From Escherichia phage PGN6866, in the sequence record MT127620: DNA of 64,000 nt, one strand, 5' to 3'. The position numbers and the translations under genes were made by a program. How positions within the stretch are numbered: the first letter of the stretch is position 1; each line of letters opens with the position of its first letter. The notes under the pieces were generated by a model that searched no databases, was not told the origin of the DNA, and worked only from the letters and a program-made list of their open reading frames with translations. Positions 62,780 through 64,000 of the stretch are shown here, piece by piece.

Positions 62780-64000
62780 TTAACCTCTATTCAATGAACA
62801 TTTAGGAGAATTACAATAAACTTGATTCATAGAACCAAGCGTACAACTTTCAGCATCGCGCCACGGAATCTGCTTAAAACACTCTGAGCAGTATCCGAGG
62901 GTTGACCACATGGCTTTGGTGAAGTCAGTGCTTCGGTTTCCGTCGAAGCTGACAACAGTTTTGCGGAGAGCTGTTCGTGATTCAGGAAACACACCTGCTT
63001 TCTCAGCAGGTTCCTCCTTTTTTGGCTTAGTTGAGATTGCAAAAATACTGTTGCTACGTTTCTCAACATAAGCATCAACAACATCCTCCAGAGTGATGCC
63101 TGTCTGTTTCGCTGAGGAAGGTAATACAGTCATACGACCAATCATATCTTCAGTTACACGTAAAGCAAATTCAGGACGACGGGCGTTTGTTGTATCTGTT
63201 GCTTTAATCCATACATAACCATCTTTGATCGTAGCATTAGACACTTTCTTCTTTACTTCTACAGCGCAGACTTTACAGATATCTTCACCACGAAGACGAC
63301 TAAGTTCATCATCGAACTCATTCTCTGTTTTAACTTCACCGCAGATTTCACAAACACCAATAGGAGTTTCCTCCTCTTCTTCCTCTTTAGGTTTAGTCAA
63401 ACCTTCCAGACATTCAGGATGCCAATAGCACTGATATGCGAAGACTGCTTTAGGTGCATCCTTCCAATCAATGTGTTTGTCACAACCACCACAATCACCA
63501 TGAGAGTGTGCTTCCCAGAATTTACGAGTGATAGTAACGCCATTCTTGTTGACGAAACTATCATTCATATCAAAAGGGATATCATCATCGAAGTCAGCAG
63601 TAGTTGACTCAGGCTCCTTTTTCTCCAGAGATGGGTCAACAAAACGACCTGCTGTGATCACTAAACGGACCATAGCATTGACTTCGGAGATGCAGGATAC
63701 TGTCCCACGGTAAACGATCTTAGGGTCTTTCAGTGCGTCCTGATAAGCCTTAATATCTACGTTATGAACATCACCTTCGATGTACTCTTGAGACTTCTCA
63801 TCGTAGATATAACCAATCATCTTACCACGAGAAGGAACAGCACCGGCAGTTGCATAAGGGACAAACTCATGCGGAGTGATTTCAACAGTCATATCACGAC
63901 GGATATCAATGTTTCGATCGCTTGCGATTTTGTTTTGACTTACCACTGCGTTTCTTCGACGAACGTCTGCCGCTGTCACACCCGGCTTCGTGTCGTAAGG
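62780..64000 (-). CDS. Cys-rich protein with internal SSB-tail-like DFDDDIPF motif; 5' end probably beyond window
   Basis: Frame stays open upstream of the GTG at 63979 to the window edge; CxxC clusters; ADFDDDIPF about 130 residues into the visible ORF. Confidence 0.45.
   Translation of the reverse strand, partial: PYDTKPGVTAADVRRRNAVVSQNKIASDRNIDIRRDMTVEITPHEFVPYATAGAVPSRGKMIGYIYDEKSQEYIEGDVHNVDIKAYQDALKDPKIVYRGTVSCISEVNAMVRLVITAGRFVDPSLEKKEPESTTADFDDDIPFDMNDSFVNKNGVTITRKFWEAHSHGDCGGCDKHIDWKDAPKAVFAYQCYWHPECLEGLTKPKEEEEEETPIGVCEICGEVKTENEFDDELSRLRGEDICKVCAVEVKKKVSNATIKDGYVWIKATDTTNARRPEFALRVTEDMIGRMTVLPSSAKQTGITLEDVVDAYVEKRSNSIFAISTKPKKEEPAEKAGVFPESRTALRKTVVSFDGNRSTDFTKAMWSTLGYCSECFKQIPWRDAESCTLGSMNQVYCNSPKCSLNRG

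Follow-up and report, generated by a model that had tools for sequence, protein, structure and literature searches.

Can a phage enzyme make use of the docking peptide of its host's SSB (the protein that binds single-stranded DNA) when that peptide lies far inside its reading frame? The C-terminal tip of SSB (SSB-Ct) is a hub that recruits upwards of a dozen proteins of bacterial replication and repair, e.g. chi, ExoI, RecQ and PriA. A copy of this tip is encoded at the edge of a 64,000-nucleotide stretch of DNA from Escherichia phage PGN6866 (sequence record MT127620; the whole analysed stretch is called the window below), in the orthologue of gene phi32_83 of phage phiEco32, whose product is referred to here as gp83. 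The original prediction for this DNA held that the ADFDDDIPF in the visible open reading frame (ORF) is almost identical to the end of Escherichia coli SSB, that it is internal and followed by about 260 residues with CxxC clusters, and that the frame stays open to the window edge. All of these observations hold. DFDDDIPF is identical at 8/8 positions to the end of E. coli SSB, 169-MDFDDDIPF (PMC11436948), and includes the SSB-Ct hexapeptide DDDIPF (PMC5872125). It occurs only once in the six-frame translation of the window, and the 263 residues that follow it contain four CxxC pairs and further Cys and His residues that are invariant in close homologues.

A conserved tip peptide in a flexible linker after an OB fold

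The final 2 kb of the window have 98–99% DNA identity to phiEco32, SU10, Bas90 and ~65 further records, and judged from this identity the source of the window is a phiEco32-like coliphage (Kuravirus, Gordonclarkvirinae). These phages supply the part of the gene beyond the window edge. In phiEco32, gp83 has 676 residues, of which the N-terminal 270 lie outside the window. The N-terminal part is a class-II (Ntn) glutamine amidotransferase (GATase), which begins with MCGI, has the N-terminal Cys nucleophile and the R-x-x-T, H-N-G and D-S-E catalytic motifs of its class with R85, N110, G111 and D128 invariant (outside the window) and matches Pfam GATase_6 with an E-value of 1e-14. For full-length gp83 Pfam gave only the GATase, with A2M_BRD and zf-A20 weak and below threshold, and in a profile search of PDB sequences the matches were confined to the GATase part, while a 31-residue query around the motif gave none. 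AlphaFold2 (AF2) models of the window fragment (predicted local distance difference test score, pLDDT, 70.8) and of the full-length homologue P0004 (pLDDT 73.1) have the same layout. The predicted order is the glutaminase, a low-complexity linker of ~40 residues, a helix, an OB barrel, a disordered linker that contains the motif and a Zn-binding domain, followed by an acidic linker, a Zn ribbon, an alpha/beta domain, another linker and a third Zn-binding domain (Table 1). The OB topology lies directly upstream of the motif, and pLDDT drops below 50 at residues 127–140 of the window fragment and 398–419 of the P0004 model. Burial of the motif, which the original prediction had named as grounds for rejecting it, is not what is predicted, as the region is disordered and exposed in both models.

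Word-indexed, exhaustive and profile searches yielded a gp83 family of ~20 clusters with 26–99% identity. The gp83 motif follows the tip pattern of D-D-D-[IL]-P-F after an acidic/aromatic D-F, and in a 20-sequence alignment its columns score 0.73, compared with 0.39–0.42 for the flanking linker and 0.44–0.65 for the folded domains, which makes it the most conserved segment of the C-terminal region. D-D-x-P-F-[D/E/G] is kept in 19 of the 20 relatives (metagenomic or from Gordonclarkvirinae), down to 26% identity; P0016 carries a degenerate DDIPE. P0018 and P0019 have the motif one linker further on, past the first Zn domain, as one would expect of a mobile or functional short linear motif. When the gp83 family is aligned with SSB by hhalign, only ~10 columns at the tip align (E 5e-5). 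We conclude that the glutaminase subunit of a phage amidoligase module (see below) carries a conserved and exposed SSB-tip peptide after its OB fold, and that this motif, in its flexible linker, is a docking peptide of the SSB-Ct type that is under selection.

The same tip is present in other phage proteins. A scan of IMG/VR for DNA encoding DFDDDIPF found at least 120 loci, and among the 120 matches listed the motif stands directly before the stop codon in 89, is followed by 4–15 extra residues in 31, and by more than 15 residues in none. Proteins outside the SSB family make up 15 of the 55 distinct terminal carriers among the matches listed. Judging from these sequences, phages appear to use the SSB tip as a mobile module and to append it, at or near the C-terminus, to proteins of diverse kinds. 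The carriers outside the SSB family include L016, L017, L028, L033, L039, L065, L088, L104, L111 and L121, of which L111 is Cys-rich. Many phage SSBs have a conserved extension of 14–15 residues, ...MDFDDDIPF-APVTLPFPRHAIHAI* (L019, L021, L037, L041, L043 and others). About one quarter of the phage proteins among the matches listed thus have DFDDDIPF in a non-terminal position, which is odd given the presumed requirement for a free Phe.

This requirement matters for gp83, since in its annotated ORF the terminal Phe is not free. The original prediction cautioned that canonical recognition needs a free C-terminal Phe, and the caution is well founded: a single Cys appended to E. coli SSB abolishes the SSB-Ct interactions (PMC11436948). 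If an extension of one residue has this effect, a copy 263 residues away from the end should not work canonically.

A conserved slip site on the tip codons

The codons of the motif region in the window are GAT GAT GAT ATC CCT TTT GAT. They contain a zero-frame -1 slippery heptamer of the form X_XXY_YYZ, C_CCT_TTT. Of 13 homologues examined, 12 have a -1-frame TGA directly after the slip. In the host, heptamers of this type are efficient. The class H_HH.U_UU.Y, of which C_CC.U_UU.U is a member, ranks in the top 15 of -1 motifs by efficiency in E. coli; it gives >0.1% shifting with no stimulator present, and E. coli genes contain it less often than expected (PMC4066793).

Codon usage was compared in the DNA of 13 family lineages (P0012-14, P0017 and P0018 were left out). 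All genes that encode DDIPFD (9/9) do so with exactly GAT ATC CCT TTT GAY, including L015, which has 35% identity in the C-terminal region. The nine genes have pairwise amino acid identities of 44–71% and the fraction of same codons at identical residues is 0.44–0.58, so synonymous sites are essentially randomised between them. Their codon alignment has 170 columns with an invariant degenerate residue, and one codon is used throughout in 19 of these (11%). D-I-P-F is the only run of at least three fixed codons in the ~680-codon gene, and it holds the sole fixed-codon Ile (1/8) and the sole fixed-codon Pro (1/8). The synonymous conservation is not found in the four lineages in which the Ile is replaced. 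Since the slip site was picked beforehand from the peptide, there is no multiple-testing penalty. The conserved block of 14 nt is not repeated elsewhere in the window. Conservation of the canonical slip site on the tip codons is found at the level of nucleotides as well as residues.

Other heptamers are present in the window. An in-frame G_GGA_AAG lies near the end of a gene which we take, from its position, to be the major capsid gene. In phiEco32-like phages -1 frameshifting is known in the capsid gene (PMC7881722). Within gp83, a second in-frame heptamer of top efficiency, A_AAA_AAG (the dnaX motif; 63017..63023, minus strand), lies in the last disordered linker (TKPKKEE) and has a -1 stop four codons later. 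The equivalent linker contains C_CCA_AAG in L012 and L013, and no heptamer in other homologues.

We propose, with a probability of roughly 0.45, that dnaX-like recoding gives rise to a GATase-OB isoform which is short, ends in a genuine SSB tip and docks on the proteins that recognise SSB-Ct. A fraction of the ribosomes would slip back one base at C_CCU_UUU, presumably while the P site is occupied by Pro-tRNA and the A site by Phe-tRNA. UGA would be read next, and termination would release a product ending in ...DFDDDIPF with a free C-terminal Phe. Two isoforms would result: a GATase-OB protein of ~412 residues and ~46 kDa, whose alpha-carboxylate would be free, as in the ligands that SSB-Ct pockets accept, and the read-through protein of 676 residues and 76 kDa, in which the motif would be masked and followed by three Zn-binding domains. 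The non-tryptic C-terminal peptide of the short isoform would be EPESTTADFDDDIPF. The short isoform could dock on the readers of the host SSB tip, be they host replication and repair factors or the phage replisome, and docking would recruit the glutaminase together with its amidoligase partners to single-stranded nucleic acid. No SSB gene is annotated in phiEco32 or Bas90, and PHROG scans of 10 unannotated ORFs of the replication module found none. The phage replisome probably relies on host SSB and may itself read the tip.

The original prediction had considered a mimic of SSB that acts after processing. The mimicry agrees with a conserved and exposed motif after an OB fold, but the processing is more likely to be translational than proteolytic, because a conserved heptamer with a -1 UGA would give the free Phe directly.

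Points against recoding and competing explanations

Several findings weigh against the frameshift proposal. Firstly, no truncated product has been seen: proteomics of SU10 detected the gp83 homologue, which is expressed early, with 9 peptides but not its isoforms (PMC4281155). Secondly, the search for stimulatory elements turned up none that is conserved. In a candidate hairpin downstream, the outer stem begins at 2 nt and the inner stem of 7 bp at 8 nt from the heptamer, and only the inner stem has a fitting distance (5–9 nt). In 6 close homologues RNAalifold found 3 compensatory pairs, with a weak covariation term of -0.03, and the remote homologues yielded no such hairpin. A Shine–Dalgarno (SD)-like element is also missing upstream of the heptamer. 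Thirdly, four lineages keep the peptide (DNDVPFD, DDDAPFD, DDAVPFE and DSAPFD) without the heptamer. Their codons are GTT CCA TTT, GCT CCG TTT, GTT CCT TTT and GCA CCG TTC, and the U_UUU tetramer alone is retained in two of the four. Maintenance of the peptide and of Asp/Glu at +1 in these lineages indicates that there is also selection at the protein level, as an internal element. Fourthly, the phage prefers ATC and CCT as codons, so that ATC-CCT-TTT is jointly expected 0.07–0.23 times per gene. In-frame CCCTTTT occurs three more times in the crude gene calls of the window, so the phage does not avoid the heptamer, and TTT-GAY makes the -1 TGA automatic.

Two further points concern the protein. 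Four cultured Grimontviridae orthologues (GAP52, CsaP_009, BUCT695 and Salmonella 7-11; L136-L139) have no DDIPF, while they retain the OB fold, the Zn domains and the acidic linker, so the motif is a lineage feature and not universal. Lack of conservation, the other outcome by which the original prediction was to be judged, therefore applies to these four and not to most homologues. In place of DDIPF the Grimontviridae linkers have acidic/aromatic stretches such as LDDDFDEDDE and NDEYYGDDEE. Lastly, the matches to the OB fold of gp83 are weak and generic and do not distinguish between DNA and RNA binding.

The alternative that survives best is that no recoding takes place and that the full-length protein docks on a host or phage partner through DDIPF-D as an internal linear motif, the frameshifting being incidental noise. 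The side chain of the conserved +1 Asp/Glu would then perhaps stand in for the missing alpha-carboxylate. This is supported by the lineages that conserve the motif and the +1 residue without a heptamer, by the change of linker in P0018 and P0019, and by the 31 of 120 listed IMG/VR matches with extra residues, which indicate that non-terminal copies are tolerated. However, it is difficult to reconcile with the loss of SSB-Ct interactions after addition of one residue to E. coli SSB, and it leaves unexplained why four codons are synonymously frozen on a canonical heptamer in nine diverged genes. We regard it as rather unlikely.

The linker could also be a cis-acting acidic DNA mimic that folds onto the OB fold of gp83 itself and competes with nucleic acid, without recruiting a partner. 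The tails of E. coli SSB, T4 gp32 and T7 gp2.5 compete with nucleic acid for their own OB fold. In gp83 the motif begins ~15 residues after the last OB strand, and the Grimontviridae keep an acidic linker with aromatic residues at the same place without DDIPF. The SSB C-peptide reportedly binds its own OB domain (PMC3936761). Yet electrostatics would need neither an exact D-D-I-P-F nor fixed codons, and in P0018 and P0019 a whole Zn domain separates the OB fold from the motif. Neither the AF2 model of the fragment nor that of the full-length homologue has the motif confidently docked on the OB or any other domain, which at pLDDT <50 is weak evidence. It seems improbable that the motif acts in this way.

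Chance resemblance, i.e. an acidic linker without SSB-related function, is very improbable. Acidic linkers are common and the motif is missing in four orthologues, but the rough expectation for DD[ILVA]PF is 7e-4 per 420-residue protein of the same composition, against its presence in 19 of 20 relatives, and the segment that matches the host's own tip at 8/8 positions is also the best conserved of the C-terminal region. We give marginally less credence still to a remnant of a captured host or phage ssb gene that was fused as an OB-plus-tail cassette. The order of OB fold, linker and tip is that of SSB, and many phage ssb genes carry the tip. However, the hhalign probability of the gp83 OB fold against 41 SSB OB domains is 0.2%, with the tip alone aligning, there is no Pfam SSB match at E<=1, and a blastn comparison with 5,426 complete E. 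coli genomes, ssb included, left the motif region unmatched. In addition, the linker has ~15 residues and is not rich in Gly, Gln and Pro like that of SSB. The SSB-like N-terminal module of the original prediction thus stands as an architecture, with an OB fold, a flexible acidic linker and a tip, but not as a captured ssb gene, and a recent capture is not supported. Least credible of all is proteolysis after the Phe to release an SSB-like N-terminal fragment, because, although canonical binding needs a free Phe and the site lies in an exposed linker, it has no protease, cleavage-site family or proteomic support and does not explain the conservation of nucleotides.

The amidoligase module and comparison with known systems

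The gp83 gene is embedded in a module with the order COOH-NH2 ligase type 2, a 205-residue protein, Amidoligase_2, GATase, DUF7195, a ~75-residue protein, ATP-grasp and GGACT. This order is kept in gp83 homologues down to 26% identity, and the module adjoins genes for primase/helicase, polymerase-exonuclease, nucleotidyltransferase and dCTP deaminase. By this neighbourhood, the gp83 gene is the GAT-II member of a phiEco32-type amidoligase module. Even where GATase identity is down to 26%, the DUF7195 and ~74-residue genes always stand between the GATase gene and that for ATP-grasp, and their products could be ligase substrates or adaptors.

Database records name phi32_83 'glutamine amidotransferase' or 'L-glutamine-D-fructose-6-phosphate aminotransferase'. 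The glutaminase has weak similarity to residues 69–132 of GlmS, but Pfam finds no SIS sugar-isomerase domain in gp83 and its C-terminal region consists of the OB and Zn domains, so the GlmS annotation is unjustified. The start of phi32_83 is annotated as ATT (8809..8811 in phiEco32, L001, outside the window), where ATT TGT GGC gives I/M-C-G-I, and AGGTGG is present 8 nt upstream. Some records instead call an ORF of 563 residues from an internal Met, by which the catalytic Cys would be lost. The GATase domain alone (~200–250 residues, without OB or Zn domains) is common in LUZ24-like Pseudomonas, Vibrio and other phages, with 312 GATase-only records in the phage collection compared with 102 that cover at least 80% of the query.

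Table 1. Positions of gp83 features, slip-site elements and other genes in the window (residues are numbered from the window edge)
Feature	Position	Strand	Remarks
phi32_83 orthologue, C-terminal 406 codons and stop	62780..64000	minus	open to window edge
OB-fold domain, residues 38-121	63638..63889	minus	predicted; b1-b2-b3-helix-b4-b5, five strands
Acidic linker with motif, residues 122-147	63560..63637	minus	predicted disordered, from pLDDT and flank conservation
DFDDDIPF (within ADFDDDIPF)	63572..63595	minus	last 8 residues of E. coli SSB
C_CCT_TTT heptamer	63572..63578	minus	codons ATC CCT TTT
TGA in -1 frame	63570..63572	minus	directly after slip
Candidate hairpin downstream of heptamer	63523..63569	minus	z about -2.2 in Kuravirus
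Zn-binding domain 1, residues 148-200	63401..63559	minus	C170, C173, H194, C197; shares its sequence type with domain 3
Zn ribbon 2, residues 214-259	63224..63361	minus	C217, C220, C242, C245; then helix
Small alpha/beta domain, residues 260-325	63026..63223	minus	no recognised family
Zn-binding domain 3, residues 346-406	62783..62965	minus	C371, C374, C386, C396, C401
DUF7195 small gene, 77 residues	62544..62777	minus	directly downstream of GATase gene in every homologue context examined
Gene of ~74 (about 75) residues	62339..62563	minus	between GATase and ATP-grasp genes
ATP-grasp (RimK-like) ligase	61143..62336	minus	amidoligase module
GGACT / gamma-glutamyl cyclotransferase	60217..60636	minus	amidoligase module
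Primase/helicase gene	57960..59750		after GGACT
HNH homing-endonuclease ORFs	49374..49703; 52921..53400	minus	inserted in replication/nucleotide-metabolism module
In-frame G_GGA_AAG	15551..15557	plus	near end of gene 14517..15575; fits known capsid -1 frameshift

For the amidoligase module, Iyer et al. (2009), to the extent that they are cited in PMC10580990, proposed cell-wall modification or superinfection exclusion. In contrast to this proposal, the OB fold, SSB-type tip, Zn domains and replication-gene position of gp83 point to the context of nucleic acids or the replisome. Gordonclarkvirinae have an unusual resistance to restriction-modification without a known modification pathway, and the authors of the BASEL collection suspect covalent DNA modification (PMC11990801). 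In viromes, genes for amidoligases and amidotransferases are found together with those for thymidine hypermodification (PMC8989533). Together with the features and location of gp83, this makes a role of the module on nucleic acid or at the replication fork, although speculative, worth testing. It is a doubtful further step that the frameshift-unmasked tip plugs the amidoligase pathway into the SSB interactome at forks, and that this could be the missing DNA- or fork-associated modification behind restriction resistance.

If the frameshift proposal is true, a phage enzyme that exposes an SSB tip by recoding would be a new viral route into the SSB-Ct hub, and the frameshifting itself would have a new use, the making of a C-terminal docking peptide rather than the addition or removal of domains. 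It would also give a handle on the function of the phiEco32-type amidoligase module, which was predicted in 2009 and for which no characterisation was found in the literature searched. Such a handle also has a bearing on why Kuravirus-like phages, which are under development for therapy, resist restriction, a trait that is so far unexplained.

Compared with known systems, gp83 resembles each in part. E. coli, phage and plasmid SSBs have the same eight residues after an OB fold and a flexible acidic segment. Unlike in SSB, the tip of gp83 is 263 residues away from the annotated C-terminus and is part of a glutamine amidotransferase, its OB fold is not homologous to that of SSB, and a free Phe would be present only in a putative frameshift (or cleaved) product. 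E. coli dnaX, which encodes tau and gamma with A_AAA_AAG and then UGA, has likewise a zero-frame X_XXY_YYZ heptamer inside a long ORF and near-immediate termination in the -1 frame, giving a shorter isoform without the C-terminal domains, as we propose for gp83. It differs in that gp83 has C_CCU_UUU, lacks an SD-like element upstream and has downstream a hairpin that is modest and not conserved, and in that the proposed purpose of its putative shift is to expose a C-terminal docking peptide. Within phiEco32-type amidoligase modules (PF14395 COOH-NH2_lig, PF12224 Amidoligase_2, ATP-grasp, GGACT and GAT-II) gp83 represents GAT-II. The short GATase-only versions of LUZ24-like and other phages are without its C-terminal region, and GlmS shares the N-terminal class-II glutaminase domain but not its own SIS/isomerase domain with gp83. 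The SSB-Ct tip and the dnaX-type frameshift are known parts, and what is new here is their proposed combination in gp83.

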